A stretch of DNA of 64,000 nucleotides from Candidatus Dormiibacterota bacterium (lineage in GTDB: Bacteria; Chloroflexota; Dormibacteria; Aeolococcales; Aeolococcaceae), in the NCBI GenBank assembly GCA_003131685.1, contig PKWB01000147.1, positions 1,580 to 65,579 on the forward strand, given 5' to 3'. Positions within the stretch are counted from its first letter, which is position 1. The number at the start of each line of letters is the position of its first letter. The position numbers and the translations under genes were made by a program. The notes under the pieces are model-generated. The model was given only the letters and a program-made list of their open reading frames with translations. It was not told where the DNA came from and did no database searches. Positions 30,665-64,000 of the stretch are shown piece by piece.

Positions 30665-31669
30665 ATGTTCAAACTGCCCCGATCCGCCCGCTTCGGTCTG
30701 GTGGTGATGGTCGCCGGTATAGCGGTTGGAACGCTGGCAACGACACAGCGCCTCCCGGTGACCCCCGCGGGTGTCTCGGCGGCGCCTCGGGCGACAACCA
30801 CCCCAACGCCGGCCCCGTCGTTGGATATGAAGGTGGCGAGCGCCAATCTCAGCTTCACGATGCCGCTGTCGATGCTGGGCGGGGCTCCGCCGATGCGCGC
30901 ACGGGCCGGCATCCTCGTTGACCTGGACACGGGCGCGATTCTCTGGGCCAAGCAACCCGACCTCGAGCTCGCGCCCGCCAGCCTCACCAAGGTGCTCACC
31001 GCCCTGGTCGCGCTCGAGAACTTCAGCCCTGACCAGGCGGTCACGATCACACCCGACGCCCTGGGCCAGTCGACTGCCGACACGCTCATGCACCTCAAGG
31101 CGGGTCAGACCTTCACCGTCGAGGAGTTGCTCGAGGGCATGCTGCTCCCGAGCGGCGACGACGCTGCGAGCGCGATTGCGGTTGACACGGTCGGCGCGGA
31201 CCGCTTCATCGCGGCCATGAACGAGCAGGTCGCTGCGCTTGGCCTCCATGAGTCGCACTTCTCGGCGACCGCAGGGCTCGACGACCCGCACCTCTACTCC
31301 TCCGCGTACGACCTCGCGGTCATCGCGGCGTACACGTACGAACACTTCGCGCTCTTCGACCAGATCGTCGCCACCCGGGCGATCAACCTGCCTGCCAGCG
31401 CCGAGCACCCGGCGTTTGAGCTCCACAACCTCGACGCACTGCTCCAGGCATATCCGGCAGCGGTGGGCATCAAGCCCGGGTGGACCGGCAATGCAGGCGC
31501 CTGCCTCATCGGGATGGCAGTCCGCGGCGGGCATCGCCTCCTCGCGGTGCTGCTGAGCGCGAACTATCCGGCTCGTCTCGAGAGCCGGCTGTTCGACTGG
31601 GGCTTTCAGCTCGATGGTCTGCCCCCGCTGCTGCCGCCTACGCCGTCTCCCTCGCCGGCACACCGCTGA
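30665..31669 (+). CDS. D-alanyl-D-alanine carboxypeptidase (peptidase S11 / PBP5-like)
   Basis: Signal/anchor, then an SxxK motif (ASLTKVLTALVALE) in the DacB-like N-terminal region; motifs II/III assumed from family, not located. Confidence 0.8.
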   Translation: MFKLPRSARFGLVVMVAGIAVGTLATTQRLPVTPAGVSAAPRATTTPTPAPSLDMKVASANLSFTMPLSMLGGAPPMRARAGILVDLDTGAILWAKQPDLELAPASLTKVLTALVALENFSPDQAVTITPDALGQSTADTLMHLKAGQTFTVEELLEGMLLPSGDDAASAIAVDTVGADRFIAAMNEQVAALGLHESHFSATAGLDDPHLYSSAYDLAVIAAYTYEHFALFDQIVATRAINLPASAEHPAFELHNLDALLQAYPAAVGIKPGWTGNAGACLIGMAVRGGHRLLAVLLSANYPARLESRLFDWGFQLDGLPPLLPPTPSPSPAHR

Positions 31670-31910
31670 CGCCGCGCCCGAGGCTGCTCGGCGCGAAGGC
31701 ACAGCCTGTCTCCGGCTCGTCGCAGCGACGGCCCGCGTGGCTGCCACTGGCTTGGGCGCGAGTGCGAGGCCGCACAGCCCGGCTGCGGACGGCCTCAGCA
31801 CATGGCGCTCTGTCATTCCCGGCCCTGAAGCGACCTGGGCCAGAGGATAGCCAGACGACCGTGAACCTACCTGAGGATGTGCTGAGGGGGATCGTCAACG
31901 CGCTGCGCGG

Positions 31911-34067
31911 TCATGTGATCGCGAACGCCGCCGCCATCGACCCCTGCCAGGGCGCTGACGTGATCAACCGCAGATTCGGCAGTTTGGCGACGCAATTGAC
32001 ACTCCACGGGTTCATGGGCGAAGGGATGGTGTGCGCGCCCATGAAGAGGATGCCGGCGCCCGTCAGGTCGGCCTCATGTTGAATGGCCGACGCGGCATCA
32101 GCAGGGTCGGCACACGCTTTGCTGACGGCGATGTCCAGTGGCAGGGTCAGGGCTCCGGACTCGAAGCCGTTGGGGACCATCGGGGTCAGATCCGTGAGCC
32201 CGGCCAGCCACATACCCGCATCGTTGCCGCTGTTGGTCATGACCACGGTGGAGCTCGGATATTCGTCCGTCAGCGTGTTCAACACCGTGAGGTCCGCTGG
32301 AGTGACCAGCGAGCGGGTGGCCACCGCGTGCTGGTACACGCCGAGCTCGTATGAGGCGCCGACCACCAGGCACACGATGGCGATGACGCCCAGGGCCAGC
32401 GGCGCGGCAGCGAATCGATGCCCGCCCACGCGGAATCGAGTGGCGACAAAAGCGGGAACTTCCGCGCGGTAAACGTAGAGAACCCAGGCGACCACCACCG
32501 CCGCTGCGGTGATTGCCATCGCAGGGATCCATGGGCGCAATGCCGTCAATGGATCGTAGAGGCCCAGCGGATAGGTGTAGACCGCGTACTGGCCGATGAG
32601 ATAGGTCCACAAACGGCCGAGCGAATGGCGCACCAGGACGGCGACTCCGGCGGCGAGGACGCCGGCCACGGTCGCGCCGATCTGCAACTGTCGCGTCCGC
32701 GACAGCGAGCGCATCACGCTGATGATCGCGAGGAAACCGGCGCCAAGGACGAGCGGGATCAACCAGTACTGATAGCCGAGGATGCGATCCTGCTCGGCCC
32801 ACGGAAAGATGAGCCGCCAGAGCTTCGCGAGCTTGTGCCAGTAGAAGTCGTCCACCATGAATGCGACCAGCAGCACCTGGGCCACGAGCACCCAGAGCAT
32901 TCGACGCTGGACGATCAGCGCCACGACGCCGATCAGGTACAGCGCGAACGCAACCGGACTGATGAGATCGGTCTGCGCAATCGATGCGAGGATCACATGC
33001 ACGTGTATCGGTGTGCTCGTGACCGGGATCGAGGCCGACGAGGGCTGGGTCGCGGTGGGTGGGGGAACGTGGGGCGACCGCGTCAGCAGGGTCACGACGA
33101 CGGCGCCGGCGAGCACCGCCCCCGCCGCGACGCCCACCCGGATGAGCGCGACTCGCGGATTGGCGCGCACCACCTGCACCACCGTGATCGCTAGCAGGCC
33201 ACACGCGACCACCGCGCCGGTGAACACCTCGAGACCGTGTATCACCCAGATGGATGCGGTGATGGCAAACAGCAGGAGTGCGGTGTCACGCGTGAAGACA
33301 CCCCGAAAGACTCGTAGTGCGGCAACGACGAAGGGGACGATGAGCGTCGAGTCGACGATCTCGGGAAAGCGGCCGACGATCGCCTGAAACGATGGAAAGG
33401 CAAGCCCGAGCGCGAAGAAGGGAACCACCGCTGCGAGTGCGACAGATCCGGTCCCCTCGAGCGCGAGAAGGCTGAGTGACACAGGAATCAGCACCAGCGT
33501 CACCGTGATCACCGGTCCCATCGCCATCGCGGGCGATGGGGCGCCGAGCCACGACACCACGGCGGCCGTCGCCTCGAACCCGGGGCGCACGCGCACGAAT
33601 TCGGTCCCCTCGATCGGGATCCGGATCAGCGGCAGCACATCGTGCGTTCGCGCAATCGTGTTGGCGAGCCCTCCGTGCGTCGCCGTGTCCCAGTCGGGAG
33701 GGAGCACCTGGCCATGGAGGGCCCAGAAGAAAACCGATGCCCCGATGAGACCGGCAAGGAGCGCAGGAATCGGTACCCACCAGGGAGAGGCGACGCTGAC
33801 GGCGGGGGAAGCCCGGCGCCAGCGGAGCACCGCGGCGGCCCCAAGCACCACCAGCAGCGGCAGCACGGTGGCCGGCTCGAAGGGGATGTGCGCGTCGTGC
33901 ATCGCCATCCCGGCGACGCCGATGAACCCTGCGGACATCCCCGGGGACATCGCAAGTCTCGTCCACCATCGCCACTCCGGAGCGAGCAGGGTCGCAAGGG
34001 CATAGCCAGGGAGCAGTGCCGCAATCACCACCCCGGGGAGCGATTGCGCGAAGTCTTGGAGTGACAC
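31911..34067 (-). CDS. Large polytopic membrane protein, GT-C-like candidate
   Basis: 718 aa, 13 or more hydrophobic segments, soluble C-terminal domain. Divergent from the priming phosphotransferase. No conserved motif confidently recognised. Confidence 0.45.
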   Translation of the reverse strand: MSLQDFAQSLPGVVIAALLPGYALATLLAPEWRWWTRLAMSPGMSAGFIGVAGMAMHDAHIPFEPATVLPLLVVLGAAAVLRWRRASPAVSVASPWWVPIPALLAGLIGASVFFWALHGQVLPPDWDTATHGGLANTIARTHDVLPLIRIPIEGTEFVRVRPGFEATAAVVSWLGAPSPAMAMGPVITVTLVLIPVSLSLLALEGTGSVALAAVVPFFALGLAFPSFQAIVGRFPEIVDSTLIVPFVVAALRVFRGVFTRDTALLLFAITASIWVIHGLEVFTGAVVACGLLAITVVQVVRANPRVALIRVGVAAGAVLAGAVVVTLLTRSPHVPPPTATQPSSASIPVTSTPIHVHVILASIAQTDLISPVAFALYLIGVVALIVQRRMLWVLVAQVLLVAFMVDDFYWHKLAKLWRLIFPWAEQDRILGYQYWLIPLVLGAGFLAIISVMRSLSRTRQLQIGATVAGVLAAGVAVLVRHSLGRLWTYLIGQYAVYTYPLGLYDPLTALRPWIPAMAITAAAVVVAWVLYVYRAEVPAFVATRFRVGGHRFAAAPLALGVIAIVCLVVGASYELGVYQHAVATRSLVTPADLTVLNTLTDEYPSSTVVMTNSGNDAGMWLAGLTDLTPMVPNGFESGALTLPLDIAVSKACADPADAASAIQHEADLTGAGILFMGAHTIPSPMNPWSVNCVAKLPNLRLITSAPWQGSMAAAFAIT

Positions 34068-34269: not shown

Positions 34270-35877
34270 TTGGGCTCCCGTTCCAGAGATCTTGAAGCGT
34301 CCCCGGAGGGTTCCATGGCAAGCCGGCGAGCGAGTGGCACTGGGCGGGGGGATCGCGTCACGGTCGAGCTTGACGGTGCGCCAGAGCCCCATGTTGATCG
34401 CCCCAAGCACGTTCAGCTGGTCGGCCAGCCCGGCGTAGCGCCGTCCGCCTTCTGGCCGACGAGTGTCTACCCTCGCATCGAATCCCGTTCGCAGCGCGTC
34501 TCCGTCCGGCGGTGGATCGCCCTCCTGGTCGTCCTCGATGCGGTGATCGCCACCCTCGCGGTGGCGGTTGCGACGCTCGCCATCTTCGGAGCCTCGCCCG
34601 AGAGGTTGAACGACCGGCTGCCATACGCGGCGATCGCAGCCACCTTCCCGGCGCTCTGGGTTGCCGCGATGCTGCTGAGCGGCTCGTACGCCCGTCGCTA
34701 CCTGGCTGCCGGGCCCGAGCAATACCGGCGCGTCTGCAATGCGTCGATCTGGATCCTCGCGCTCATCGGCTTCACGTCATACGTGCTTCGCGCCGACTTC
34801 TCGCGCGGCCTGGTGCTGATCACGATTCCGACCGCCGCGCTGCTGACGCTGCTGGCCCGCTGGGCCGCGCGCAAGGCGTTGCGCAGTCGATTCGGAGATG
34901 GCGTCGCGATCCACCGCATCGTGGAAGTCGGACCGGGCAAGGGAGCGGAGCAGCTTCGCAATTACATCGATCGAAATACGCATACCGGCTTCTCGGTGGT
35001 GGGTGTCGTCGCGACCGACGCGCTTGCCGAGGACGAACCCATCGATGTCGACGAGATCGTCAACGAGGTGAGGCGTCTCGACGCCGACACGATCGCCTTT
35101 GTCGGAACGACCCATTCGACGGGCGGCGAGCTGCGGCGAATGTCATGGGCGCTCCAGGGCTCGGGTATCCGGTTGCTGGTGGTCCCGGATCTTGCCGACA
35201 TCGCCGGCCCCCGCATCGTGATGCACCCGGTCGATGGCCTGCCACTGCTCGAGATCTGCGAGCCGGAGCTGAGCGGACCCGCTCGGGTCGTGAAATCCGG
35301 GTTCGATCGCGTCGCGTCGCTCTTCCTGATCATCGTCCTGAGCCCGGTGCTTGCGGCGATCGCGGTGGCCGTCAAGCTCAACGACGGCGGGCCGGTGTTC
35401 TTCCGGCAGCGCCGAATTGGCAAGGAAGGACGCGCGTTCAACATCTGGAAGTTCCGCAGCATGCGCGTCGGCGCGGGTGCGCTCCTGCAACCGGTTGAGA
35501 CCACCACCGGCGAAGGGCAGATGCTCGTGAAGACGCCGTCAGACGATCGGGTCACCTCGGTCGGTCGGTTCCTCCGCAGATATTCACTGGACGAGCTGCC
35601 CCAGCTGTTCAACGTGCTGATCGGGACCATGTCGCTGGTCGGCCCGCGGCCGCTGGTCCAGGACGAGGTCGACAGCTTCGGCCACGGCGCCCATGCCCGG
35701 CTGCTGGTGACGCCCGGGATGACCGGGCTCTGGCAGGTCCGCGGGCGCTCCGAGCTCCCCTGGGAGCAGCGCGTGCATCTCGATCTCTACTACGTCGAGA
35801 ACTGGTCGATCTGGCTGGACATCTCGCTCCTGTGGAGCACCCTTCGCGCGATCGCGCACTCCAACGGAGCGTACTGA
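34270..35877 (+). CDS. Polyprenyl glycosylphosphotransferase (WbaP/CpsE-like priming sugar transferase)
   Basis: N-terminal TM bundle plus the bacterial sugar-transferase C-domain (PVFFRQRRIGKEGRAFNIWKFRSM...DELPQLFNVLIGTMSLVGPRP). Confidence 0.85.
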   Translation: MGSRSRDLEASPEGSMASRRASGTGRGDRVTVELDGAPEPHVDRPKHVQLVGQPGVAPSAFWPTSVYPRIESRSQRVSVRRWIALLVVLDAVIATLAVAVATLAIFGASPERLNDRLPYAAIAATFPALWVAAMLLSGSYARRYLAAGPEQYRRVCNASIWILALIGFTSYVLRADFSRGLVLITIPTAALLTLLARWAARKALRSRFGDGVAIHRIVEVGPGKGAEQLRNYIDRNTHTGFSVVGVVATDALAEDEPIDVDEIVNEVRRLDADTIAFVGTTHSTGGELRRMSWALQGSGIRLLVVPDLADIAGPRIVMHPVDGLPLLEICEPELSGPARVVKSGFDRVASLFLIIVLSPVLAAIAVAVKLNDGGPVFFRQRRIGKEGRAFNIWKFRSMRVGAGALLQPVETTTGEGQMLVKTPSDDRVTSVGRFLRRYSLDELPQLFNVLIGTMSLVGPRPLVQDEVDSFGHGAHARLLVTPGMTGLWQVRGRSELPWEQRVHLDLYYVENWSIWLDISLLWSTLRAIAHSNGAY

Positions 35878-35919: not shown

Positions 35920-37251
35920 ATGATTGCGCCCGTTGTGGAACTGACCGGCGAGGGGCGGCGACTCGTCGAGCGGATCGGGGATCGCAGCGCTCGGATCGGG
36001 ATCGTCGGGCTCGGATACGTCGGTCTCCCAACGGCGGTCGCGTACGCCGACGCCGGCTTCACGGTGGTGGGGGTCGACACCAACGCCGAGCGATGCGCGG
36101 CGATCATGGCGGGCGAGAGCTACATCGAGGATGTGCCCTCGAGCGACGTGGCACGGGCGCGGCTCGATGACCGGCTGACCTCGGTCACCTCGCTGGCAGC
36201 GGCCGGCGACCTCGATGTCGTCGACATCTGCGTGCACACCCCGCTCGGCGACACGCGCGAACCCGACACGTCGGCCATCGAGGCGGTGGGCGAGGCGCTG
36301 ATCGCGTGCCAGCGTCCTGGTCAGCTGATCGTGCTCACCAGCACGAGCTACCCGGGAACCACGGAGGATGTCCTCCGCCCCATCCTCGAACGCTCGGGAC
36401 TGGTGACCGGCGTGGACGTCTTTCTCGCCTTCGCCCCCGAGCGGATCGATCCCGGGAACAGGCGGTTCACGCTGCGCACGACGCCGAAGGTCGTGGGTGG
36501 CGTCGACGATGCTTCGACCGAGGTTGCGCGACAGGCGCTCCTGACCATCGTCGACGTCGTGACCCCGGTGCGTGATGCAACCACCGCTGAAATGGTCAAG
36601 GTCCTCGAGAACACCTTTCGCATGATCAACATCGGCTTTGCCAACGAGGTCGCGCAGATGTGCCGCCGCCTCGGAGTGGATGTCTGGGAGGTCATCGAGA
36701 GCGCCGCCACCAAACCGTACGGATTCATGCCGTTCTATCCGGGTCCCGGCGTTGGGGGGCACTGCATCCCGGTTGATCCCTCATATCTGCAATGGAAGAT
36801 GCGCAACCTCGACTTCCGCACCCGGTTCATCGACCTCGGTAACGACGTGAACCGGGGGATGCCGGATTACGTCGTGCAACGAGCCGACGATGTCCTCAAT
36901 GACATCGGGCGCAGCATGCGTGGCTCGCGCATTCTCCTGGTCGGGGTTGCGTACAAACCCAACATCGGTGACGTTCGCGAGTCGCCGGCGATCGAGGTGG
37001 CCGATCGGTTGCTTAGTCGCGGCGCGCTCGTCCGATACGTCGATCCCCACGTTGCGTCGCTCTCCACCCATGGTGGCGTGAGCCTTCGGGGGGTGGAGCT
37101 CACCGCCGCCGAGCTCGAGGCGAGTGAGCTCGTGGTCATCACCACGGCACACGATGCGATCGACTGGGCACTGATTCGAGAACGCGCCCCGCTCGTGCTC
37201 GACACGCGCGGCGTGCGCGGTCAGGGTCGCGCGGGCTGGCATACGCTGTAG
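35920..37251 (+). CDS. Nucleotide-sugar dehydrogenase (UDP-GlcNAc/ManNAc 6-dehydrogenase, WecC/WbpA-like family)
   Basis: Rossmann IGIVGLGYVGLPTAVAYA and the catalytic Cys region (GGHCIPVDP) of the UDP-glucose/GDP-mannose dehydrogenase family. Confidence 0.85.
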   Translation: MIAPVVELTGEGRRLVERIGDRSARIGIVGLGYVGLPTAVAYADAGFTVVGVDTNAERCAAIMAGESYIEDVPSSDVARARLDDRLTSVTSLAAAGDLDVVDICVHTPLGDTREPDTSAIEAVGEALIACQRPGQLIVLTSTSYPGTTEDVLRPILERSGLVTGVDVFLAFAPERIDPGNRRFTLRTTPKVVGGVDDASTEVARQALLTIVDVVTPVRDATTAEMVKVLENTFRMINIGFANEVAQMCRRLGVDVWEVIESAATKPYGFMPFYPGPGVGGHCIPVDPSYLQWKMRNLDFRTRFIDLGNDVNRGMPDYVVQRADDVLNDIGRSMRGSRILLVGVAYKPNIGDVRESPAIEVADRLLSRGALVRYVDPHVASLSTHGGVSLRGVELTAAELEASELVVITTAHDAIDWALIRERAPLVLDTRGVRGQGRAGWHTL

Positions 37252-37253: not shown

Positions 37254-38228
37254 TCAGTCGGGAGCGGTCTGCCCCCAGGATTCGAGTGTTCGCCGGATTC
37301 CCTCATCGAGGCCGACATGCGCGGTCCAGCCGAGCCGTTCGGCCGCGCGAGCCGCCGACGGGACACGCCGGCGAGTGTCCTCGAAGCCGGCACCGAAGTG
37401 CTGCTCGTAGCTCTCGTGAACGATCGTGGAGCTGCTGCCGCTCGCCTCGATGACCTTGCGTGCGAGGTCGGCGATGGTCATCTCGGTCGTCGCATCGCCG
37501 ATGTTGAACACCTGCCCCTCGGCGGGCTGGGTCTCCATCGCGAGCACGGTGCCGTCGATGCAGTCGTCGATGTAGGTGAAGCAGCGCGACTGGAGGCCGT
37601 CGCCATACACGGTCACGGGGTCGCCGGCGAGCGCCTGACGGACAAAGGTGGCCATCACGCTGCCGTAGCCCTTGGGATCCATGCGCGGTCCATAGATGTT
37701 GAAATAGCGGACGATCACTCCGCGCAGCCCGTGTGCCGCATGCGCGAGGAGGAGATGCTCATCGAGCGCCTTCGCAGTGGCGTACGACCAGCGCTGGATG
37801 ACGGTCGACCCGAGGATGCGATCATCGTCCTCGTGCATCGGAACCCGGCCGCCGCGTCCGTAGACCTCGCTCGAGCTGCTGATCAGCACCTTGCGTTCGT
37901 GACGCGCACACGCGGCGAGAATATTCTCGGTACCGCGACTGTTGACCTGGAGCGATCCGAGGGGGTTGGCGATGATGTGTGCGACCCCGACCGCCGCAGC
38001 GAGATGGAACACTCGATCACAGTCGCCCACAAGGGTTTCGACCAGCGCATCGTCGAGGATGGTGCCTTCGACGATGCGAACCTTGCCACTGTCTGCGTGC
38101 CGCCCGATGTTGTCGCGGCGCCCGGTGGAGAAGTCGTCGAGAGCGATCACCGCGTCGCCATGCTCGACCAGGCGATCGACAAGATGGCTGCCGATGAAAC
38201 CGGCGCCGCCCGTCACCAACGTCCTCAC
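37254..38228 (-). CDS. NAD-dependent nucleotide-sugar epimerase/dehydratase (extended SDR)
   Basis: [20 protein letters not shown] Rossmann motif and the catalytic YATAK (YxxxK). Confidence 0.85.
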
Positions 38229-39348: not shown

Positions 39349-40137
39349 GTGGCGATGACAGGCGGAACCACCGCTCGAACTCTCAGTTCCGTGCGCGTTC
39401 GGCGTTTGATCATCGAGCAGTCGAAGCGTGCCCATGTGGGACACATCGGCTCCGCACTCTCGGTCGCGGATATTCTGGTTGCGCTGTTCTCCGGAACGGT
39501 CGATCCCGAGGTGGATGTCTTCATCCTGTCAAAGGGTCATGCTGCCCTGGCGCAGTACTGCGTGCTCGCCGAGCTTGGTTTGATCACGCACGAGATGCTC
39601 GACACGTACTGCGGGGACGACACTCAGCTCGGCGTCCACCCCGATCACACGTTGGCCGGCATCACGTTCTCCACCGGCTCGCTCGGTCATGGACCATCAC
39701 TCGGTGCCGGCGTGGCGCTCGCGAAGCGCATCGCGGGCCGGCCTGGAAGAGTGTTCGTGCTGATGAGCGATGCCGAGCTCAACGAGGGGTCGGTGTGGGA
39801 GGCGGTGATGTTCGCCGGGCATCACAGGCTCGACAACCTCACGGTGATACTCGACAACAACGGGCAGCAGGCGCTGGCGCCGACCGCTGAGGTGATCAAC
39901 CTCGCTGGTGTTGATCAACTCGTGCAAACGCTTGGATGGGAGAGCAGGCGCGTCGATGGGCACAACGTTGACGCGCTGACCATCGCCTTCGAGGCTCGCG
40001 CACCAGGAAGGCCACTCTTCATGATTGCGGACACGGTTGCCGGCAAGGGTGTGAGCTTCATGGAACGCCAGGTCAAGTGGCACTACCTGCCGGTGGACGA
40101 CGCGCAATTCGCCCTGGCGTTGAGTGAGATCGGGTGA
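39349..40137 (+). CDS. Transketolase, N-terminal (TPP-binding) subunit of a split transketolase
   Basis: GHIGSALSVADILVALF...SKGHAALAQY...GSLGHG and the TPP-binding GDG-like region. 262 aa. Confidence 0.85.
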   Translation: MAMTGGTTARTLSSVRVRRLIIEQSKRAHVGHIGSALSVADILVALFSGTVDPEVDVFILSKGHAALAQYCVLAELGLITHEMLDTYCGDDTQLGVHPDHTLAGITFSTGSLGHGPSLGAGVALAKRIAGRPGRVFVLMSDAELNEGSVWEAVMFAGHHRLDNLTVILDNNGQQALAPTAEVINLAGVDQLVQTLGWESRRVDGHNVDALTIAFEARAPGRPLFMIADTVAGKGVSFMERQVKWHYLPVDDAQFALALSEIG

Positions 40138-41054: not shown

Positions 41055-41106
41055 AACTGGCGCCGTCGCGCGCGTGGGGACCAGCACCCCGACCCACGGT
41101 TCGCCG

Positions 41107-55909: not shown

Positions 55910-56416
55910 ATGACGCCACCGCTCGTCACGCTGCGTCTTGCACGCGATGACGACGCCGATCGTCTCCTCGAGTGGCGCAATGACGCAGACGCCGTCCGCT
56001 TCGGCGTCAGCGGCCGGCACGTGACCGGCGAGGATCACGCGCGGTGGTTCGCGACGCGACGCCGCGACCCGAGCGTGCACCTCTGGATTGCGGAAGTGGA
56101 CGGGACTCCGGTGGGACAGGTGCGTGTTGACGACGAACCTGACGGTGTTGGTGTGGTGTCGGTCGCGGTTGCCCCCGCACATCGGGGGCGGGGGATCGGA
56201 TCCGAGATGCTCCGAGCGATGGCCGCCACCGTTGTCGCAGAGACGACGGTGTGCGTGTTGAAAGCGCTTGTCCATCCCGACAATGTGCAATCCATCCGTG
56301 CGTTCGAGAGGGCGGGCTTCGGCATGACGGCGTCAAAAGAGGGCGGTTTCACCGTGCTCGAAAGGGCCGTTGGCGAAGAACGCACGCAAGGGAGGATCAG
56401 TCGACCGCCCGTATGA
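55910..56416 (+). CDS. GNAT-family N-acetyltransferase (PseH-like position, immediately after pseI)
   Basis: 168 aa. GNAT motif A (VVSVAVAPAHRGRGIGSEMLRAM). Confidence 0.7.
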   Translation: MTPPLVTLRLARDDDADRLLEWRNDADAVRFGVSGRHVTGEDHARWFATRRRDPSVHLWIAEVDGTPVGQVRVDDEPDGVGVVSVAVAPAHRGRGIGSEMLRAMAATVVAETTVCVLKALVHPDNVQSIRAFERAGFGMTASKEGGFTVLERAVGEERTQGRISRPPV

Positions 56417-57716
56417 CCCCTGACGCTGCCAGCCGATCGAGAATCTCGACAACAGCGGAGGTCGGCACGCCCGTCCGTTCCGCAAGTCGCTCCACGTCGT
56501 GGTCGCCGTCGCAGTACGCGAGCACGTTCATCATCACTCGTGCATCGGTTGCGCTTCCCTTGTAGCTGGTCGTTGGGTAGAGCCCGCGTGGACCGAGCTG
56601 CGGCTCGCCGGGCAGCACCGCCCGCCAACGCCGGTTGGACTCGAGCAGCTCGATACAGCGGCGGATGACGTCAAGACCGCCCTGGAGACCTGCCGGCGTG
56701 ACGACGTCGAGCCCGTCGAGGCTCGTGTGATATTCCGGGAAGGTGCCGTACTTGGAGCGCATCACCGAGCAGACCGGGAGGTCGGCACCAGGCGAGCACC
56801 ATTGCCGCTCGTCGCTGCCCCGTTCGAGGAAGCTGTACTCCACCCAAGCCGGCACCGACTCGTCGAGCACGCAGCGCGAGACCCGGTCGGCGAGGGTCCC
56901 GCCGAGTCGCGACGGGACATACGAGAACGCGCGGTCGTCACCGATGCACGTGACCACCCAGCCGGCACGCACCCGCTGACGCAGGTGATCGAGATGGCGC
57001 GACAGGTACACGATGGCGCCGATGGTCTCCGGCGCGAACACGAGTCGATACGTGTACCGCCGTGTGGGCAGCGAGGCGAGCCAGCGTCCCAGCGCCACCG
57101 TGACCACCGGTCCCGACAGCTCGTTGTTGGCCATCGACGGGTGGCACATGTACGTCGAGAGCAGCACCTCATCCTCGGTCTCGCCAGGGATCACCACGTC
57201 GGCATACGTGAGCGACCCTGGCGCCAGTGTGGAGTCGATTCGAACTTGGAATGGACCCGAACCGAGTTGCTCACGATGCTTCTGCGTCAGGCAAAACCCC
57301 CACGTACGCTTGTAGTAGGAGGTCACGTACGGGATCGCATCCGGTTGCTCCGCCAGCGAGTGGAGATGCGGCTCGAGCTCGTCACGACCCATGACCTGGT
57401 CGACGGGCTCGGAGTAGCCGACAACGTGAAGATTCGACTCTCGGAAGTCGACCAGGCGGCGGCCGTCGAGATCGGCGATGTAGGCGTCTCGAATGTTCCA
57501 CTCATCCGGGATCGTCCAGTCGAGAGCGCGCGTGCCGCTGGGGACCTCGTGCACCTCGAGCGACGGCAGCAGCGTCTGGAGGTATGCGAGCGTCGTGCGC
57601 ACGCCATCACCGGTGAGGCTGCGGCAGATCGGAAAAAGCTCGGTCGCCCACCTGTGCAGATCGGCCCCCGTGTCCACGGGAGACGATGCTGCCGTTCGAG
57701 GTGGGCTAGCCGTCAT
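56397..57716 (-). CDS. DUF4910/DUF2172 aminopeptidase-like domain protein (COG4310-like) with a C-terminal winged helix
   Basis: M28-like peptidase-fold region typical of COG4310 proteins found in polysaccharide loci. C-terminal VERLAERTGVPTSAVVEILDRLAASGVI wHTH-like. Start chosen after the stop of the upstream gene. Confidence 0.55.
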   Translation of the reverse strand: MTASPPRTAASSPVDTGADLHRWATELFPICRSLTGDGVRTTLAYLQTLLPSLEVHEVPSGTRALDWTIPDEWNIRDAYIADLDGRRLVDFRESNLHVVGYSEPVDQVMGRDELEPHLHSLAEQPDAIPYVTSYYKRTWGFCLTQKHREQLGSGPFQVRIDSTLAPGSLTYADVVIPGETEDEVLLSTYMCHPSMANNELSGPVVTVALGRWLASLPTRRYTYRLVFAPETIGAIVYLSRHLDHLRQRVRAGWVVTCIGDDRAFSYVPSRLGGTLADRVSRCVLDESVPAWVEYSFLERGSDERQWCSPGADLPVCSVMRSKYGTFPEYHTSLDGLDVVTPAGLQGGLDVIRRCIELLESNRRWRAVLPGEPQLGPRGLYPTTSYKGSATDARVMMNVLAYCDGDHDVERLAERTGVPTSAVVEILDRLAASGVIRAVD

Positions 57717-58518
57717 GTTCGACGCTGTACAGCAGGCCTTCTGCCCTTCCATCGTCGATGACGCGTTCCACTGCGGCAAAGAGACGATCCGCATCGATGA
57801 CTCGGAGTCCGGATCCCTCGCCCGGGCGATCGCCGCTGTAGAGCGATTGCTCCCAGAGGAGTTCGCCCATCGGATCGACATCGGTCTTGACACCTTGCTC
57901 GAGATCCCGAACGAAGAGACCGTACTCCCGTCGTGCCGTTACGCCCGAAGAGTCGGTGTAGTCACCCGCAAAGCTCTTGTGAAAACGGTACGGAACGTTC
58001 TTCATCTCTTCGACGTGATGGTAGAAGGTCATGCTGTGCTGGTCGGGAAGATCAAGGATCGCGATACGGCCGCCAAGCACACGGAGTCTCGCAAACGGCG
58101 AATCAGCGCCATACCCACTGAAGTTGTCGATGTCCGCGAACTCCTCGGCGCGAGCACCGATCACAGCAAAGGAATAGATCGGATGCCCGGTGCGGACAGC
58201 GCCGTCCAGCTGGCGCGCGGTTTCGGTCAGCACACCCATCTGGCTCGGAGTGGTGCGGATATCGAAGGCGACGCCCTCTGTGAACTCGAAGTTGAACAGC
58301 GGGAAAAGCAAGGTACCGGTGTCACCGACTGCTTCCCTGAAACTGTCGAGAATGTCGCCGACCGCGCCGGGCATGCCGCCTTGCACGCAACGCCGGACGG
58401 TGCGTCGCAAGCTGCTGTGAATCAGGACGAGGTCGCCAGTGCGTATCCCCGCATGGCGCCAGTCCTCAGCGAGCGAGGTCACGGCCTGATCATCCATCGC
58501 GTCTCCTCGTGTCCCCAA
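57706..58518 (-). CDS. AAC(3)-family (Antibiotic_NAT) N-acetyltransferase
   Basis: 270 aa. GDLVLIHSSLRRTV...TGTLLFPLF...THHVEEMKNVPYR, diagnostic of aminoglycoside 3-N-acetyltransferase-like enzymes. Confidence 0.7.
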   Translation of the reverse strand: MGTRGDAMDDQAVTSLAEDWRHAGIRTGDLVLIHSSLRRTVRRCVQGGMPGAVGDILDSFREAVGDTGTLLFPLFNFEFTEGVAFDIRTTPSQMGVLTETARQLDGAVRTGHPIYSFAVIGARAEEFADIDNFSGYGADSPFARLRVLGGRIAILDLPDQHSMTFYHHVEEMKNVPYRFHKSFAGDYTDSSGVTARREYGLFVRDLEQGVKTDVDPMGELLWEQSLYSGDRPGEGSGLRVIDADRLFAAVERVIDDGRAEGLLYSVEHDG

Positions 58519-58546: not shown

Positions 58547-59908
58547 CTACTCCTTATCCTCGCGGCGCCAGAGGGTGGAGGTTGCCATACCGCGGGCCTG
58601 GCGAGCTTGATCCCGGCGCCGTGCCACGCGACGTTGCTGGCCGGTTATCTGCGCCACTGGTGCGGCGATCGTCCAGACAGCCTCCGCCGCCACCGATCGT
58701 GCGAGCAACGCCGGGGCGAAGCGTCGCCGGCGGAGGTCAAGGGCGTGCCGGGCGGGACCGGTAGGCCAGTCTGCGGCGATCGCCTCGAGGCGCGCCGCGA
58801 CACGTTCAGTGGCGTGGCCGTCGATGTGGCCGAGCGCCTGCTCGTACCACGCGGCGCAGGCCGGGCCCGGCACCGCGCTCAGATCCTGCAGGAGCGCAGC
58901 AAGGTGCTCGGCAGATGATGCCTGGCGCAGGCATCCGGCCGGTGCCTCCTCGAATGGAATCAGACGCTCTCGAAACCGCTCGTACTCGTCTCCCCAGGCT
59001 GCATAGATGACGGACTTCCGCGCGGCGACGGCCTCGTACAGGGCGGTTGTCTGAAACCCGACCACCGCGTCTGCCGCGACGATCAGCTCGCGGGTGTCGG
59101 CACCGATCTCCGCTACTGAGAATCCGTGGCGCCAGAGTGCCCCCGCCTCGCGCGCAAGTCGGGCTGACTCGACCTCCTGGTTCTGCTGCGGGTGGCACTT
59201 GACGATGACCTCGCACGAACCAGAACGGGCCGCAGTCATGAGCACCGCCTCGGTCCCGTTGCGGAGCTGCCTCCAGGTGGACGGTCGAGGGTCCTGTGCG
59301 GCGCGGGGAACATATGCGTCGAGTGCGTAGGAGAGCAGCAGCACCCGAGGGCGCGGGTTCGCGGGCCTGGACGTCTGCGTTGCGTACATGTCGATGCGCG
59401 GCTGGCCGGTCACCTCGACGTGGCTTCGCTCAGCGCCGGCACGGAGCCAGAACTCCATGTGCCGTTCACTGCACACCGTCATGAAGTCGGAGATGAACGG
59501 CGCCGCCGCCCGCATGTTTGCGCTGTGGACCTGCATGGTACCCACAGAGACCGTCGTCTCCTTTTGCACAACCACCACCGGGATACCGAGCGCATGGGCG
59601 GCGCCGGGGAGGCTGCGAACGTAGAAGAAGGTGTCCGATGGCAGGACGATGACGTCAAAGGCCTGCTCCAGATACAGGCGGCGCACCTCGCCGAACAGCC
59701 ATCGCGCATACCGGCGTCGCGCCGGTTCCAGGTCGGCGCGATTGTAGGTATCGAGACCGGTTGCCACGTCGTTGCCGAGCATTCGCAGGGCCGGTCCGCG
59801 GAGGCGCTGATACGGGAACCGGCGGACACGCAGGCGCGGATGCGCTTCCAGAGCACGAAGATCCTGATCGAAGTAGTGGTCCAGGGCGAGGACCTGGAGA
59901 CGTTCCAT
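58547..59908 (-). CDS. TagF/KpsS-like HP-motif transferase candidate (second copy; putative nonulosonate or phospho-sugar transferase)
   Basis: CEVIVKCHPQQN HP motif and GT-B-like C-half. Start at MERLQV. ATGA-coupled to the upstream flippase gene. Confidence 0.45.
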   Translation of the reverse strand: MERLQVLALDHYFDQDLRALEAHPRLRVRRFPYQRLRGPALRMLGNDVATGLDTYNRADLEPARRRYARWLFGEVRRLYLEQAFDVIVLPSDTFFYVRSLPGAAHALGIPVVVVQKETTVSVGTMQVHSANMRAAAPFISDFMTVCSERHMEFWLRAGAERSHVEVTGQPRIDMYATQTSRPANPRPRVLLLSYALDAYVPRAAQDPRPSTWRQLRNGTEAVLMTAARSGSCEVIVKCHPQQNQEVESARLAREAGALWRHGFSVAEIGADTRELIVAADAVVGFQTTALYEAVAARKSVIYAAWGDEYERFRERLIPFEEAPAGCLRQASSAEHLAALLQDLSAVPGPACAAWYEQALGHIDGHATERVAARLEAIAADWPTGPARHALDLRRRRFAPALLARSVAAEAVWTIAAPVAQITGQQRRVARRRDQARQARGMATSTLWRREDKE

Positions 59909-61461
59909 CAGGGCACCCGGCGCACGGGGCGGAGAAACCCGAAGAGGGAATTGCGCTCTTCGGCGTCCATTGCAAATCGGGCGACGCCCACGACGTAGAC
60001 GATGCCCGCCGGGATGCAGCACGCGGCAATCGTGATCAGCCCTACCGGCTGGATGAACCAGGCCGTGGCCGCGAGGATTGCGGCAAAGACCAGCGCCCAG
60101 ACAAGCACGGGCAGGATGGCCTGACGGACGAACTCGCCAACCCCCATCGAGAGCAGATTGAGCGCAAGCCGGATGTACAGCGGGGCTGTGATGCCGTAGC
60201 CGATGAGCGTTCCGATGATGACACCGGAGATCCCGAGTGGTCGAACCAACGCGATCGAGATCAGGAGGTTGATCACCATCGCGGAGGTGGCGTAGAGGGC
60301 GATGATGCGCATGCGGCCCAGCCCGATCGGGATCGTGTGCGCGATGGTCGCCGAGCTGATGACGAGCTGATACACGAGGAAGAGCTGCGTCGGGCCGCTC
60401 ATGTACGCGTACTGTCCGCCGACCCAGGCGATGATGAGTGGTCGTGCAAGGATCATCGCGGCGATGGTGGCGGGGAAGGAGAGCGCCAGCGTGTAGCGAG
60501 TGCCACGAATCAGCAGCGCACGTAGTCGCACCGTCGACTCGATCGCCGACAGGTTTGCCGCCGCCGGCACCACGGCCTGGGTGGTGAAGGAAAGCGGGTA
60601 TGAAGCCGCGCTCTGGAGCCGGTTGGCGATGTCATATCCGGTGAGCACTCGGACGGGGGCGGCCGATGCAAGGATCACCTTGTCCATTTGGGCCCAGATC
60701 ACACCGCTGATGGCGGCGACGAACGCCCACCCGCTGAACCCTGCCAGCGGCCTGAGCCCTGTTCGGCTGATGAGATGTGGCGACACGCGGAGCTCCGGGC
60801 ACGAGAGCCGCGCCATGAGCGCGTACCCGAGCGCGGAGTAGAAGCTGCTCGCGACAGTGACCGCACCAAACGCGATGACGCCATGGCCGGTACCGAGAAC
60901 CGCCACCACCGCGCCCGCGTACAGCAGCTGCCGGGACATGTCGACGGCCTTGATCCTTCCATACCGCTGGAGACCCTGCAGCAGACCGTAGAAAGCAAGC
61001 CCGGGGAGACTGCAGAGCGCCTCCGCAGCAAAAAGCACGAAGAGCAGACCGAGGGCCGATCGAAGCGATTCCGTTGGTACGTGAAAGAGATGCGCCGCCA
61101 GGACCGCCAGCACGAGCAGGACGAGGGCGGCGGCGACCCCGGTTCCGAGCAGGATGGCCAGCGCCGAGCTCACGACCTGACTCATGCGCTCCCGATCACC
61201 GCGTCCGTCCGCGTCTGCGATGAAGCGACTGACCCCCGCCTGCAGTCCGAGATCAGAGATGCTCAGATACCCGGCAGAGACGGAGAAGCTCAGCGCGAGC
61301 ACGAACACGCCGTAGGAGGTCATGCCGAGGCTTCGGATCGCGAACGCGACCACGAAGAAGTTGATGAGCAGCGAGAGCACGCCCACGATGCCACTGATCA
61401 GGGTGTTGCGGAAGACCCTGCGGCCGTGCGCTATCTCCGGCGGCAGATCGACGGTCGTCAT
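59908..61461 (-). CDS. wzx: Wzx-like oligosaccharide flippase (MOP/polysaccharide biosynthesis protein family)
   Basis: 12-14 TM helices with a Polysacc_synt-type N-terminus (VFRNTLISGIVGVLSLLINFFVVAFAIRSLG). Confidence 0.75.
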   Translation of the reverse strand: MTTVDLPPEIAHGRRVFRNTLISGIVGVLSLLINFFVVAFAIRSLGMTSYGVFVLALSFSVSAGYLSISDLGLQAGVSRFIADADGRGDRERMSQVVSSALAILLGTGVAAALVLLVLAVLAAHLFHVPTESLRSALGLLFVLFAAEALCSLPGLAFYGLLQGLQRYGRIKAVDMSRQLLYAGAVVAVLGTGHGVIAFGAVTVASSFYSALGYALMARLSCPELRVSPHLISRTGLRPLAGFSGWAFVAAISGVIWAQMDKVILASAAPVRVLTGYDIANRLQSAASYPLSFTTQAVVPAAANLSAIESTVRLRALLIRGTRYTLALSFPATIAAMILARPLIIAWVGGQYAYMSGPTQLFLVYQLVISSATIAHTIPIGLGRMRIIALYATSAMVINLLISIALVRPLGISGVIIGTLIGYGITAPLYIRLALNLLSMGVGEFVRQAILPVLVWALVFAAILAATAWFIQPVGLITIAACCIPAGIVYVVGVARFAMDAEERNSLFGFLRPVRRVP

Positions 61462-61474
61462 GCTGCGGCCTGCA

Positions 61475-62242
61475 TCATCCCCCGACGCGCCCGCGTCGCG
61501 CAGCGTCACGCTGAGCGTGGTATCGCTCGTTTCGCAGCGGCAGTCCGGTCTGGTCGCGGAGCGCCGGGTCCATCTCGAAGGCTGCCACGACCGCAGCCAG
61601 GTCGGGAGGTGGCGAGGACGGAAGCTTCGAGAGCAGCGCTTCCACGCGTGCAAGGTCCGCGGGGACATCGACGGTCAAGCGGATCCAGGAGAGGTCGCGA
61701 TCGGACGCCACCCGGACGATGCGGAACATGTCGGGTCGCTCGCGGGTCAGGGCGGTCACGTGTTCGCGCAGATAGCCGGCACTCGCTTCCTTATCGAGAC
61801 GGTCCAGGCACGCAGAAGTGAAGACCTCACAGTCATATCCCTCCGGAAACGTCGGCGGCTCGACGTTGCTCGCGTAATCGGCGTCATCGCGGCTTCGGGC
61901 GCCGATGACCGAGTCCACCACGGCGGGATCAGTGAGCGGACAGTCGGCGGTGATGCGCACGATGACGTCGGCGTCGTGCTCGCGTGCCGCCATGACATAG
62001 CGGGCCAACACATCGTCCTCGGGTCCCCGCGTCACCTCGGCACCCGACGCGCGGGCAAGTGTCGCAACGTCGTCATCGATGCTGCCGTCGGTGGTGGCGA
62101 CGACGACGCGGTCGACCAGCGTCGCGCGCGACACGCGCTCGATGATGTGAGCGAGCATCGGCCGTCCCTGGAGCGGTGCGAGCACCTTGCGTGGGAAGCG
62201 TGTCGATCCTGAGCGCGCCTGGATCACCGCGACGGTGGTCAT
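61475..62242 (-). CDS. pseF: CMP-nonulosonate (pseudaminic acid-type) cytidylyltransferase, PseF/NeuA/SpsF family
   Basis: MTTVAVIQARSGSTRFPRKVL is the hallmark CTP_transf_3 N-terminus. The ORF track's longer N-terminal extension is Arg-rich overread. Confidence 0.85.
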   Translation of the reverse strand: MTTVAVIQARSGSTRFPRKVLAPLQGRPMLAHIIERVSRATLVDRVVVATTDGSIDDDVATLARASGAEVTRGPEDDVLARYVMAAREHDADVIVRITADCPLTDPAVVDSVIGARSRDDADYASNVEPPTFPEGYDCEVFTSACLDRLDKEASAGYLREHVTALTRERPDMFRIVRVASDRDLSWIRLTVDVPADLARVEALLSKLPSSPPPDLAAVVAAFEMDPALRDQTGLPLRNERYHAQRDAARRGRVGG

Positions 62243-63225
62243 CAGGCGGCCCGAGCAGCGACGAGGTGGCGTATCGCCGCAGCGACCCGCGCAGCGCCGC
62301 GTCCATCGACCAGCGCGCGACCGCGCGTCGACATCTCCGCACGCCGAGCGGGATCGTCGAGGAGCGTCAGACACGCCCCGGCGAGTTCCGCCGGGTCAAC
62401 GACGACCGCGCATCCGGCGGCAGCAAGGGCGGCTGCCTGCGCTTCCTGGTTGCTCACCGCAGCGGTGATCACCGAGGGACATCCGACGCACGCGGCCTGG
62501 ACCGCGGTGGTGCCGGCTGCACCAACGTAGACGGTGGCAGTCCCGAGACCGCCGGCGAGGTCTGGTGGTGCAACCAGCAGAGATTCGCGCGGCCAAGCGT
62601 CACCGGCGAGCTCCATCGAGTCGGGCCCGACGACCCTGGTCACGGCCACGGTGGAGTCGCGATCCAGGAGCGCATGACTGACGGAGAGTCCGAGTCCCGC
62701 CGGATCGGTTGCACCGGTTGAAACCAGCACCGTCCGCGGTTCGCGGTCGCCCCGCGAAGCCATCTCGCGCGCGCTCACAACCGACGCGCGGATGAGCGCG
62801 TACGCCGCCCCGCCGAGAAAGGCTCGGGCACCATCGGGTCGCAGCGACTCGCCGCCCGGCGACGGATTGACCGCCAGGTCGCAGTCTGTCGGCAGGCGAA
62901 GGTCGTCCACCACCGTCAGTGGCGCGCGATCGCGAAGCCGTCGCTGGAGCCCGACATCGAAGACATATCCGTCGAGCACGACGGCGTCGAACAGAGGCGA
63001 CGCAGCCAATGCCGAGGCGACACGGAGAGGCGTGTCGCCCTGAGCATCAATGGGGGTGTGACCGCGATCGCTGACACGCCGTCGCAGAGCCGCGTCGCCC
63101 TCGGGGACCAGCACCGACGCCTCGACCTCCGGCCGCAGCGCCTCGGCGAGAGCGAGCATCCGCTCGAGGTGCCCCAGCCCGACGCCGCGGCCGCAGTCGG
63201 CGGCGAGCAACGCCCGCGAGGTCAC
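62242..63225 (-). CDS. pseG: PseG-like UDP-sugar hydrolase (MurG/GT28 C-domain-like, UDP-2,4-diacetamido-2,4,6-trideoxy-L-altropyranose hydrolase family)
   Basis: 327 aa, GT-B two-domain architecture without a membrane anchor. N-terminal GxGH-like (GRGVGLGHLERMLALAEAL). Positioned between pseC and pseF. Confidence 0.65.
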   Translation of the reverse strand: MTSRALLAADCGRGVGLGHLERMLALAEALRPEVEASVLVPEGDAALRRRVSDRGHTPIDAQGDTPLRVASALAASPLFDAVVLDGYVFDVGLQRRLRDRAPLTVVDDLRLPTDCDLAVNPSPGGESLRPDGARAFLGGAAYALIRASVVSAREMASRGDREPRTVLVSTGATDPAGLGLSVSHALLDRDSTVAVTRVVGPDSMELAGDAWPRESLLVAPPDLAGGLGTATVYVGAAGTTAVQAACVGCPSVITAAVSNQEAQAAALAAAGCAVVVDPAELAGACLTLLDDPARRAEMSTRGRALVDGRGAARVAAAIRHLVAARAA

Positions 63226-64000
63226 GACCTGACCGCGCCTGCCGTTGCCCAGACATGGATCCGCTGCAGGGCGAGGACGACGTCGTCCTGGTCGGTGACG
63301 GTCATGGCGGGGTAGAGCGGCAGGGTAATCAGTTGCTCGGACAGTCGCTCGGCGCGCGGCGCGATGCCGGGAACGCCGCCACGCTCGCGGTACAGCGCGA
63401 GCAGGTGCACCGCCGGGTAGTGCAGCGTCGCCTCGATACCCTCGGCGCGCAGCGCGTCGATGACCTCGTCACGATCGCATCCGTAGCCGGCAGGATCGAT
63501 CTCGATCGCGTAGAGGTGCCATGCGCTGCGACGGCCCGGCGGCCGGGGTGGAAGGCCGATGCCGGGAATATCGATGAGGATGGCGTCGTATCGGTCGGCC
63601 AGCTCGCTCCGCTCGGCGACGACGCTGTCGAGGCGGCGCAACTGAGCGATGCCGAGCGCAGCTTGCAGAGCGGTCAGGCGGTGGTTGTTTCCGAGCATGG
63701 TGACGTCGTATTTCCAGAGCGCGCCGGTGCGCTCGTCCGCGGTGCTGGTCATCCCATGGTTGCGCAGCTTGCGAATGCGATCCGCGATGCCCGCGTCCGC
63801 GGCCAGACATGCGCCGCCTTCGCCGGTGGTGATCTGTTTCACGGGGTGGAAGCTGAGCGTGGTGATGTCTGCCAGCGACCCGACCGGACGCCCGTTCAGC
63901 GAGGCGCCGAGCGAGTGCGCGCTATCGGCGATCACCGGAAGTGGCCGGGGCAGCGCCGCTTTGAGGGCGGCAACGTCCGATGGGAGACCCGAGTAATCGA
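63222..64000 (-). CDS. pseC: DegT-family aminotransferase, PseC-like (UDP-4-amino-4,6-dideoxy-N-acetyl-beta-L-altrosamine transaminase type). 5' end lies beyond the window.
   Basis: PLP-lysine motif SFHPVKQITTGEGG. The frame stays open upstream of the ORF-track Met to the window edge (…LPVIADSAHSLGA). Confidence 0.85.
   Translation of the reverse strand, partial: DYSGLPSDVAALKAALPRPLPVIADSAHSLGASLNGRPVGSLADITTLSFHPVKQITTGEGGACLAADAGIADRIRKLRNHGMTSTADERTGALWKYDVTMLGNNHRLTALQAALGIAQLRRLDSVVAERSELADRYDAILIDIPGIGLPPRPPGRRSAWHLYAIEIDPAGYGCDRDEVIDALRAEGIEATLHYPAVHLLALYRERGGVPGIAPRAERLSEQLITLPLYPAMTVTDQDDVVLALQRIHVWATAGAVRS

Follow-up and report, generated by a model that had tools for sequence, protein, structure and literature searches.

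A predicted family of GT-C glycosyltransferases in a variable envelope-glycan locus of Candidatus Dormibacterota

What does a cluster of surface-sugar genes from an uncultured soil bacterium assemble, and what are the large membrane proteins that recur within it? These questions are raised by the second half of a 64,000-nucleotide stretch of Candidatus Dormibacterota DNA (contig PKWB01000147.1, positions 1,580 to 65,579; hereafter "the window"). A first-pass annotation of this DNA had proposed that polyprenyl-phosphate-sugar synthases and paralogous membrane proteins of the glycosyltransferase-C (GT-C) type form an undescribed system for glycosylation outside the membrane. Our analysis identifies the region from 31.9 to 64 kb (the "island") as a variable envelope-glycan locus. 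Judging from predicted structures, two of its large proteins, G40 and G43, are members of a new and extensive GT-C family that lacks annotation. Acting by a mechanism of an already known type, the large proteins probably transfer sugars on the outer side of the cell membrane.

Dormibacterota are soil bacteria without cultured representatives and form the sister group of Chloroflexota among the Terrabacteria (PMC10608941). Because the GC content of the window is high (0.63-0.70), genes were called by third-position GC; they were then annotated with Pfam and NCBIfam models, and "above cutoff" refers below to the curated or gathering score of a model. About 26 successive glycan-related genes, a 32-kb surface-sugar cluster, run from 31.9 kb to the window end. 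Every open reading frame named in the first-pass annotation was found at its coordinates. The island itself does not start at 30665 as that annotation had it; 30665-31669 encodes a DD-carboxypeptidase and the island proper begins at 31.9 kb. Rfam and tRNA scans of the window gave no matches. Contigs from two sequencing runs were 99-100% identical to the window, and in a scan of species-representative genomes 26 of the 28 related loci were in Dormibacterota metagenome-assembled genomes (MAGs). The island is not a chance assembly: its modules appear again in over 20 loci of Dormibacterota MAGs.

Large membrane proteins with a predicted GT-C fold

G43 (50735..52960, minus strand; 741 residues) and its paralog G40 (46707..48827, plus strand; 706 residues) are polytopic proteins that share 24% identity over about 690 residues (E 3e-11). 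An invariant Asp, His and Tyr are common to the two, and so is a C-terminal domain, as had been suggested earlier. G40 is predicted to be a GT-C through this homology to G43. Its start is ambiguous (46707-46827): the longest reading frame (706 residues) overlaps the neighboring aminotransferase gene by 76 nt, public gene calls of the identical protein start 40 codons later, at 46827 (666 residues), and an 86%-identical homologue has been called at 706 residues.

Neither protein was placed in a known family by sequence. Pfam at E up to 5, including its STT3 model, and NCBIfam gave no match to G40 or G43, and a sequence search of the PDB gave no meaningful match at E up to 10. When 31 diverse family members were compared with Pfam, only noise was obtained, plus one distant member matching DUF6541 at E 0.001. 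The ArnT/PMT_2 (GT83) and PMT (GT39) models matched neither these two proteins nor G28, a third large protein of the island. The earlier view that the large proteins fall outside the named GT-C families therefore stands for G40 and G43 but not for G28, which belongs to Pfam DUF6541, a named and uncharacterised family. Strict membership in STT3, ArnT or PMT was rejected for the large proteins on both motifs and models.

When 1.84 billion cluster representatives were searched with a family profile, 2,699 of them matched at E ≤1e-3 and 970 at E ≤1e-30; at the level of 50% identity the family thus has some 2,700 clusters. Nearly all homologues of the large proteins were metagenomic, with the named ones among them in Candidatus Dormibacterota MAGs. 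Family sequences with a named source belong to Dormibacterota and, within Actinomycetota, to Gaiellaceae, a Solirubrobacterales MAG and Streptosporangium carneum; each of them is labelled "hypothetical protein".

The fold of G43 was assessed with an AlphaFold2 model whose input alignment comprised 50 sequences (pLDDT 86.4, pTM 0.90). When the model was compared with the PDB by Foldseek, the ten best matches were to AglB, ArnT, DPY19, STT3, PglB and AftA (E 5e-6 to 2.5e-3, probability 1.00), and below these ten came transporters at a probability of ≤0.1. All top matches in two independent methods were GT-C-fold proteins; the TM-scores to solved GT-Cs, those of the G28 model described below included, are modest (0.31-0.51).

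The helices of the model define 17 transmembrane (TM) segments in G43. Lysine and arginine occur only in the even-numbered, inside loops, with the exception of the invariant K327 and the C-terminal domain, and the topology is therefore N-in, C-out. The first large extracytoplasmic loop, the one after TM5, is 61 residues long, free of K and R, and holds the best-conserved residues of the family: among 31 members that are 19-32% identical, D161 is kept in 30, H175 in 31 and Y190 in 30, and E/Q171 is conserved as well. The loop motif of the family reads YxDxPFH(I/L)xLAAExxHHWP. The G40 equivalent of D161 is D184, and this invariant residue of the outside loop is presumed to act as catalytic base. 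The first-pass annotation had paired two acidic first-loop motifs, HITEAAEF and EYPDFPYF. Both do lie in the same first large extracytoplasmic loop, although this is the loop after TM5 and not TM1, and they are out of register because the invariant acid is D161 in the 741-residue protein and D184 in the 706-residue protein.

The C-terminal residues of G43, about 145 in number, form a conserved extracytoplasmic alpha/beta domain that includes W616, R618, E651 and E657. A C-terminal extracytoplasmic alpha/beta core domain is also a hallmark of STT3. On the other hand, the WWDYG motif of STT3 is absent: at the equivalent segment G43, like the family consensus, has AVNNH(W) and G40 has ATNVPG, and no WWD occurs anywhere. 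The proteins show three features of the GT-C superfamily, namely a polytopic module of at least 7-13 TM helices, structural similarity to solved GT-Cs (in the models of G43 and G28) and a conserved acid in an extracytoplasmic loop near the membrane. The earlier assignment of the large membrane proteins to the GT-C class is upheld, as the models match GT-Cs and not transporters and the invariant Asp lies in a K/R-free outside loop.

G28 (31911..34067, minus strand; 718 residues) is also predicted to have the GT-C fold and, like G40, has more than 12 hydrophobic segments. It matches DUF6541 (PF20176) with 67.5 bits against a cutoff of 29 (E 1e-18), whereas G40 and G43 are not above that cutoff. 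Its AlphaFold2 model is of moderate confidence (pLDDT 72). The high-probability Foldseek matches at ranks 1-12 are all GT-Cs (AftA, ArnT, DPY19 and STT3) and are followed by a transporter at probability 0.13; a PDB sequence search with G28 found nothing meaningful. At the position corresponding to the conserved loop of G43, here following TM4, G28 carries an invariant PPDWDxxTH with the invariant D127. BLAST and hhalign detected no relation of G28 to G40 or G43. In a comparison of the G40/G43 family with the DUF6541 family, hhalign gave an E of 0.07, which is not significant, yet the alignment was colinear and paired the two key Asp residues. A literature search on DUF6541 found nothing.

Sugar-donor synthases and conserved gene neighborhoods

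The donors of GT-Cs of this kind would be supplied by polyprenyl-phosphate-sugar synthases, and the two GtrB/ArnC-type enzymes announced by the first-pass annotation were indeed found. G37 (42980..44005, minus strand) is of the GtrB/PgfS type: it matches the PgfS model end to end (E 8e-71, profile positions 2-304 of 308) and the ArnC model with E 3e-46. G41 (48824..49837, minus strand) is of the ArnC type and likewise matches its model end to end (E 9e-54, positions 3-310 of 316), at 183 bits against an equivalog cutoff of 529. Since the scores of both are below the equivalog cutoffs, their sugar specificity may differ. Each contains a Pfam Glycos_transf_2 domain, the DxD-LQxPPE motif (LLDGDLQDPPE in G37, LDDDLQNPPEE in G41) and two hydrophobic helices at the C-terminus, and so neither is an ordinary cytoplasmic GT2. 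A third anchored GT2 had been listed with them; G32 (38252..39289, plus strand) is a membrane-anchored GT2, with three hydrophobic segments at its C-terminus, but it is not GtrB-like and matches MftF, EpsD and PgaC best.

G44, G43, G42 and G41 lie on the same strand with gaps of 20, 4 and 2 nt. The adjacent pair G44-G43 is kept in at least 10 other MAG loci, and G44 is almost always immediately upstream of a G43-type gene. In about 20 of 23 loci, genes of the NeuB/Pse class for nonulosonate synthesis lie no more than about 5 kb from the G43-type gene. An ArnC-like gene comes next after the G43-type gene, with at most a methyltransferase gene or a second G43 paralog in between, in about 10 of 22 loci. 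Longer blocks recur as well: G41-G40-G39-GNAT in three loci (L010, L018 and L029) and G37-G36-G35-G34, with or without G33, in six (L005, L008, L009, L018, L026 and L029). G40 is present in only three or four loci, and in L005, L009 and L026 its place is taken by G16, a polytopic protein encoded upstream of the island in our window. Thus, the proposed pairing of synthases with GT-C paralogs withstood comparison of synteny and is conserved across genomes and phyla, and, based on this adjacency, G40 and G43 would use lipid-phosphate-linked sugar donors.

Two further observations concern the G43-type genes themselves. Two of them stand in tandem before the ArnC-like gene in L006 (10001-14479) and L008 (10001-14475), with copies that are 66% and 53% identical to G43 of the window, and several MAGs have two or three family paralogs per contig. 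There seem to be two G43 subtypes, one linked to G44 and the other to the ArnC-like gene. Related MAGs differ in the modules that they carry and in the orientation of these, a pattern typical of hypervariable surface-glycan loci, and between 40000 and 60000 the GC content of the window drops to 0.63-0.65 from 0.67-0.70 in the flanks.

Outside the phylum, the clearest neighborhood is that of the cultured actinomycete Streptosporangium carneum (L031, BSEV01000048.1, 8001-17627), which has two family GT-Cs. The gene order is GT-C, DegT aminotransferase, GtrB-like GT2, FdtA/hexapeptide acetyltransferase, GtrA, second GT-C and ArnC-like GT2. The first GT-C is 25% identical to G43 over its full length, the GtrB-like GT2 35% to G37 and the ArnC-like GT2 46% to G41. 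By gene content, this locus is a complete and genetically tractable counterpart of the Dormibacterota modules. In a Gaiellaceae MAG, a family GT-C is accompanied by a DegT gene (49% identical to G39), a GtrB-like GT2 with C-terminal TM helices, an acetyltransferase and methyltransferases, and an Emb-like gene adjoins a family member. L032 has a G40-like GT-C with a methyltransferase, DegT and GNAT; L037 has a family GT-C with a G38-like methyltransferase and a GT2 that lacks TM helices; and around the family GT-C of L038 the glycan context is absent. L033 combines DegT, a G38-like methyltransferase and a family GT-C with a fused gene (5585-7048, minus strand) in which an ArnC-like GT2 (43% identical to G41) carries a C-terminal GNAT acetyltransferase. 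Read as a Rosetta-stone link, this fusion connects N-acetylation with the lipid-loading of the sugar.

A proposed pathway and its alternatives

From the genes present, their predicted folds and topology, the conserved residues and the conserved neighborhoods we favor, with some reserve, the following reading: the island probably produces a Wzx-exported, pseudaminic-acid-containing envelope glycan, which GT-Cs fed from the two polyprenyl-phosphate-sugar synthases decorate or extend on the outer side of the membrane. The donors, the acceptor, the order of steps and the assignment of synthases to GT-Cs given here are those we infer from the same evidence. The first-pass annotation had seen an assembly line in this gene set, which included a WbaP-like primer, a Wzx flippase, three methyltransferases and nonulosonate genes. 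All of these were recovered (by TIGR03025, Pfam and the PseI cutoff), and they make up a glycan-assembly gene set; a single line is not thereby shown, and the island consists of modules that are rearranged from one genome to the next.

The core glycan would be started on undecaprenyl phosphate by G29 (34270..35877, plus strand), a WbaP/WcaJ-type polyprenyl-phosphate hexose-1-phosphate transferase (Bac_transf, 8e-66; 404 bits against a TIGR03025 cutoff of 295). Extension in the cytoplasm would fall to G32 and to two HP-motif transferases, G44 and G48b, and export to the Wzx-type MOP flippase G49 (59908..61668, minus strand; Pfam). G44 (52981..54729, minus strand) is a soluble candidate CMP-ulosonic-acid-dependent transferase with a weak Capsule_synth match (E 4e-4); in 13 homologues four cysteines (C108, C115, C128 and C131, in CGGRLPIC...PCHSC) and the sequence RIHPAE are invariant. 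G48b (58547..59908, minus strand), also soluble, has weak matches to surface-carbohydrate and BFO_1060-type glycosyltransferases and carries a KCHPQQ motif. HP motifs of this kind are found in CMP-ulosonic-acid transferases. The two proteins show no similarity to each other, and neither the G44 profile nor G48b matched anything in the PDB. Both are likely pseudaminyltransferases.

Their donor would probably be CMP-pseudaminic acid. The nonulosonate synthase G45 (54828..55907, plus strand; NeuB and SAF domains) is above the PseI cutoff, at 346.3 against 340.25 bits. The other enzymes are a PseH-like GNAT acetyltransferase, G46 (55910..56416, plus strand; 46 bits against 93), a PseG-like UDP-sugar hydrolase, G50 (62242..63225, minus strand; TIGR03590 E 8e-31, 107.7 bits against 153.6), and a PseC-like aminotransferase, G51 (63222..64000, minus strand; profile match), which ends at the window edge. 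PseB and PseF are not within the window, whose end falls inside PseC, and in the related locus L014 a PseB-type gene lies 5' of PseC. Also among these genes are G47 (56397..57716, minus strand), an aminopeptidase-like protein by its Pfam domains (DUF4910, DUF2172 and HTH_47, a winged helix), and G48 (57706..58518, minus strand), which resembles AAC(3) N-acetyltransferases by profile. Both are kept in several MAGs and may make a non-standard N-acyl derivative of the nonulosonate.

Outside the membrane, the GT-Cs would add sugars from polyprenyl-phosphate-monosaccharide donors by the "three-component" mechanism of Gtr- and Arn-type systems. Two modules could provide such donors. In one, the sugar 4-aminotransferase G39 (45499..46782, minus strand), a GNAT N-acetyltransferase (44921..45499, minus strand; Pfam) and G41, with the S-adenosylmethionine (SAM) methyltransferases G38 (44131..44934, plus strand; Pfam) and G42 (49840..50730, minus strand; Pfam), would yield a polyprenyl-phosphate-linked, N-acetylated 4-amino-deoxyhexose, possibly methylated, for use by G40 and probably by G43. 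G39 is of the WecE, or dTDP-4-amino-4,6-dideoxyhexose, type and exceeds two curated cutoffs (PRK11706, 525 against 375 bits; TIGR02379, 473 against 435 bits). The other module comprises a split transketolase with N and C subunits, G33/G34 (39349..41054, plus strand; Pfam), the SAM methyltransferase G35 (41002..42042, plus strand; Pfam), the short-chain dehydrogenase/reductase (SDR) epimerase G36 (42045..42999, minus strand; Pfam) and G37. A split transketolase in one block with a methyltransferase, an SDR and a GtrB-like synthase therefore points to two-carbon transfer or branched-chain sugar chemistry that feeds a lipid-linked donor. The product would be a second, unusual polyprenyl-phosphate-sugar, perhaps branched or methylated, for another GT-C, with G16-type proteins, G28 and G43 as candidates.

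G36 has a feature of its own. The Rossmann motif (CLVTGAAGFVGANL) is encoded 5' of the first ATG, GTG or TTG (42896-43000, minus strand), and the conserved N-terminus, (R/V)IRCLVTG, starts at a conserved ATC codon and overlaps the TAA stop of G37. The same arrangement without a canonical start occurs in six other MAGs (L005, L008, L009, L018, L026 and L029). It suggests that the gene is not truncated and that translation begins at a non-canonical ATC or is coupled to that of G37. The island also encodes an NDP-sugar 6-dehydrogenase, G30 (35920..37251, plus strand; three UDPG_MGDP_dh domains, TIGR03026 above cutoff), and an SDR epimerase/dehydratase, G31 (37254..38228, minus strand), for which models of UDP-xylose/4-keto-pentose synthase and of the ArnA C-terminal type match best, all under their equivalog cutoffs.

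Two more polytopic proteins had been described as lying just upstream of the island. G15 (13520..15244, minus strand) had been labelled GT87; this label was not borne out, and the protein instead matches the Pfam PMT model for GT-Cs just above its cutoff (23.9 against 22.7 bits). G16 (15513..17285, plus strand; 590 residues) has no match in Pfam (E up to 5) or NCBIfam, and hhalign found nothing against the G40/G43 family. About 13 kb of unrelated metabolic genes (17.3-30.6 kb, including those for malonyl-CoA decarboxylase, an ABC transporter, a CoA-transferase and an oxidase) separate the two from the island, and their contiguity with it was rejected. G16 is nevertheless functionally tied to the island, because its homologues adjoin G43 homologues inside the islands of L005, L009 and L026.

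Several observations weigh against the reading that we favor. Its case is built wholly on predicted structures and synteny. No GtrA, small multidrug resistance (SMR) protein or other small donor flippase was found in the island, where no small hydrophobic open reading frame with coding-like GC3 occurs between 30 and 64 kb and the sole MOP protein is G49. Six loci (L012-L015, L017 and L025) have no GtrB/ArnC-like gene closer than 10 kb to the G43-type gene; in L014, PseB, a GT2, GT4s and methyltransferases occupy the place of the ArnC-like gene. The partner gene of G28 is that of the primer and not a synthase gene. Finally, a Wzy polymerase, an LCP ligase and a CMP-pseudaminic acid synthetase were not recognisable in the window.

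Some of these observations would fit a different role for the large proteins. G28, the G44-linked subtype of G43, or both could be oligosaccharyltransferase- or ligase-like enzymes that do not use single sugars linked to a monophosphate, and that instead take a Wzx-flipped, undecaprenyl-diphosphate-linked glycan containing pseudaminic acid and either transfer it en bloc to protein, peptidoglycan or lipid or polymerise it there. STT3 and AglB are among the top structural matches of G43 and the C-terminal domain agrees, the G28 model also matches 3vu0, the Pse/Wzx context is constant while ArnC-like genes are missing from six loci, and the island has no recognisable Wzy, WaaL-type or LCP ligase. 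In L023, L034 and L035, moreover, a DUF6541 gene directly follows the Bac_transf primer gene. However, the STT3 signature WWDYG and any match to the STT3 model are missing, the Streptosporangium and Gaiellaceae members occur in textbook synthase/GtrA settings, and G43 is co-transcribed with the ArnC-like G41, to judge from operon structure; we consider this explanation unlikely. A stronger form of it is a long shot: the G40/G43 family, perhaps with DUF6541, would be an unrecognised STT3-like class in Terrabacteria that shares the two-part architecture of oligosaccharyltransferases but in which AVNNH replaces WWDYG, transferring a Wzx-exported pseudaminic-acid oligosaccharide en bloc to envelope proteins or the wall. 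In a bolder variant, G44 would attach pseudaminic acid to a polyprenyl phosphate, and this lipid-linked nonulosonate would serve G43 as donor for pseudaminylation outside the membrane; we know of no such donor.

It is also conceivable, though rather improbable, that there is no joint product, and that independent pathways (for a pseudaminic-acid glycan, an amino-sugar side chain and a branched sugar) serve different envelope polymers or glycoproteins and are merely clustered in a hypervariable locus. The different combinations and orientations of modules among MAGs, with G33-G37 in some loci, G40 in few and G16 replacing it in others, would be expected in that case, as would the GC dip between 40 and 60 kb. 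Such a patchwork is harder to reconcile with the single primer and single Wzx of the window, with tight gene packing across module borders and with the co-occurrence of Pse genes, G44, G43 and an ArnC-like gene in most loci. A last possibility is that the large membrane proteins are transporters or structural proteins and that their GT-C likeness is an artefact of helical-bundle prediction. The TM-scores are modest and the G28 model has a pLDDT of 72; but the top matches of both methods are GT-Cs throughout, the invariant residues lie in an outside loop and not in a translocation pathway, and nearly every locus examined has a glycan-biosynthesis context. We find this idea scarcely credible, and a transporter function was rejected given Foldseek probabilities of ≤0.1.

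Relation to known systems and significance

The pathway that we favor has close parallels. The Arn pathway, which adds 4-amino-4-deoxy-L-arabinose to lipid A, follows the same logic: an aminotransferase, an N-acylating enzyme, an ArnC-type GT2 that loads undecaprenyl phosphate (resembled by G41 over the full model length, with the motif DDDLQNPPEE) and transfer outside the membrane by a GT-C. In contrast to that pathway, the island has a WecE-type aminotransferase instead of ArnB and a GNAT instead of a formyltransferase, lacks ArnD and ArnE/F, and has a synthase far below the ArnC equivalog cutoff. Its 17-TM GT-C has no sequence similarity to ArnT (no PMT_2 match), and lipid A cannot be assumed as the acceptor. 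Gtr-type systems (GtrA/GtrB/GtrC, GacI/GacL, CsbB/YfhO, PgfS/PgfM and the Citrobacter GT136 system) likewise have a synthase GT2 with two C-terminal TM helices adjoining a polytopic GT-C. The island differs from them in lacking a GtrA, SMR or MATE donor flippase, whereas the Streptosporangium locus has GtrA; in addition, its two synthases would serve three to five GT-C candidates, and its GT-C family lies outside the Pfam and NCBIfam models.

Several GT-C paralogs also act on one wall glycan from polyprenyl-phosphate-sugars in the arabinan and mannan systems of mycobacteria and corynebacteria (Emb, AftA-D, PimE, PpgS/Rv3779), and AftA and AftB are among the structural matches of the island proteins. 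The island, however, lacks the decaprenylphosphoryl-arabinose (DPA) pathway, shows no sequence relationship and involves different sugars. Compared to STT3, AglB and PglB (GT66), G43 has 17 TM helices and not 13, neither WWDYG nor an STT3 match, and a context that points to monophosphate-linked donors. With the pseudaminic acid pathway (PseB, C, H, G, I and F) the island shares a PseI above cutoff and PseC-, PseG- and PseH-like genes; it departs from that pathway in that PseG and PseH are below their cutoffs and PseB and PseF are not in the window, and the additional acyltransferase genes G47 and G48 suggest a modified derivative.

The claim of an undescribed system is therefore correct in part. 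The "three-component" class of synthase, flippase and GT-C is well described (Gtr, Arn, GacI/GacL and the GT136 system; PMC11127046), and so the type of system is not new; only the predicted GT-C family and the product of the system are undescribed. DUF6541 is named but uncharacterised. Literature searches found nothing specific on envelope glycans, cell wall or glycosyltransferases of Dormibacterota, nor on pseudaminic acid together with GT-Cs.

To our knowledge, there is no experimental information on the cell envelope of Dormibacterota, a phylum that is abundant in soil and uncultured, and the island offers a concrete gene-level model of its surface glycan. Conserved neighborhoods link the G40/G43 family, across phyla, to an Arn-like amino-sugar donor pathway. 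The prediction is directly testable, because the cultured Streptosporangium carneum carries a complete version that includes GtrA. The family could found a new CAZy family, as GT136 did.

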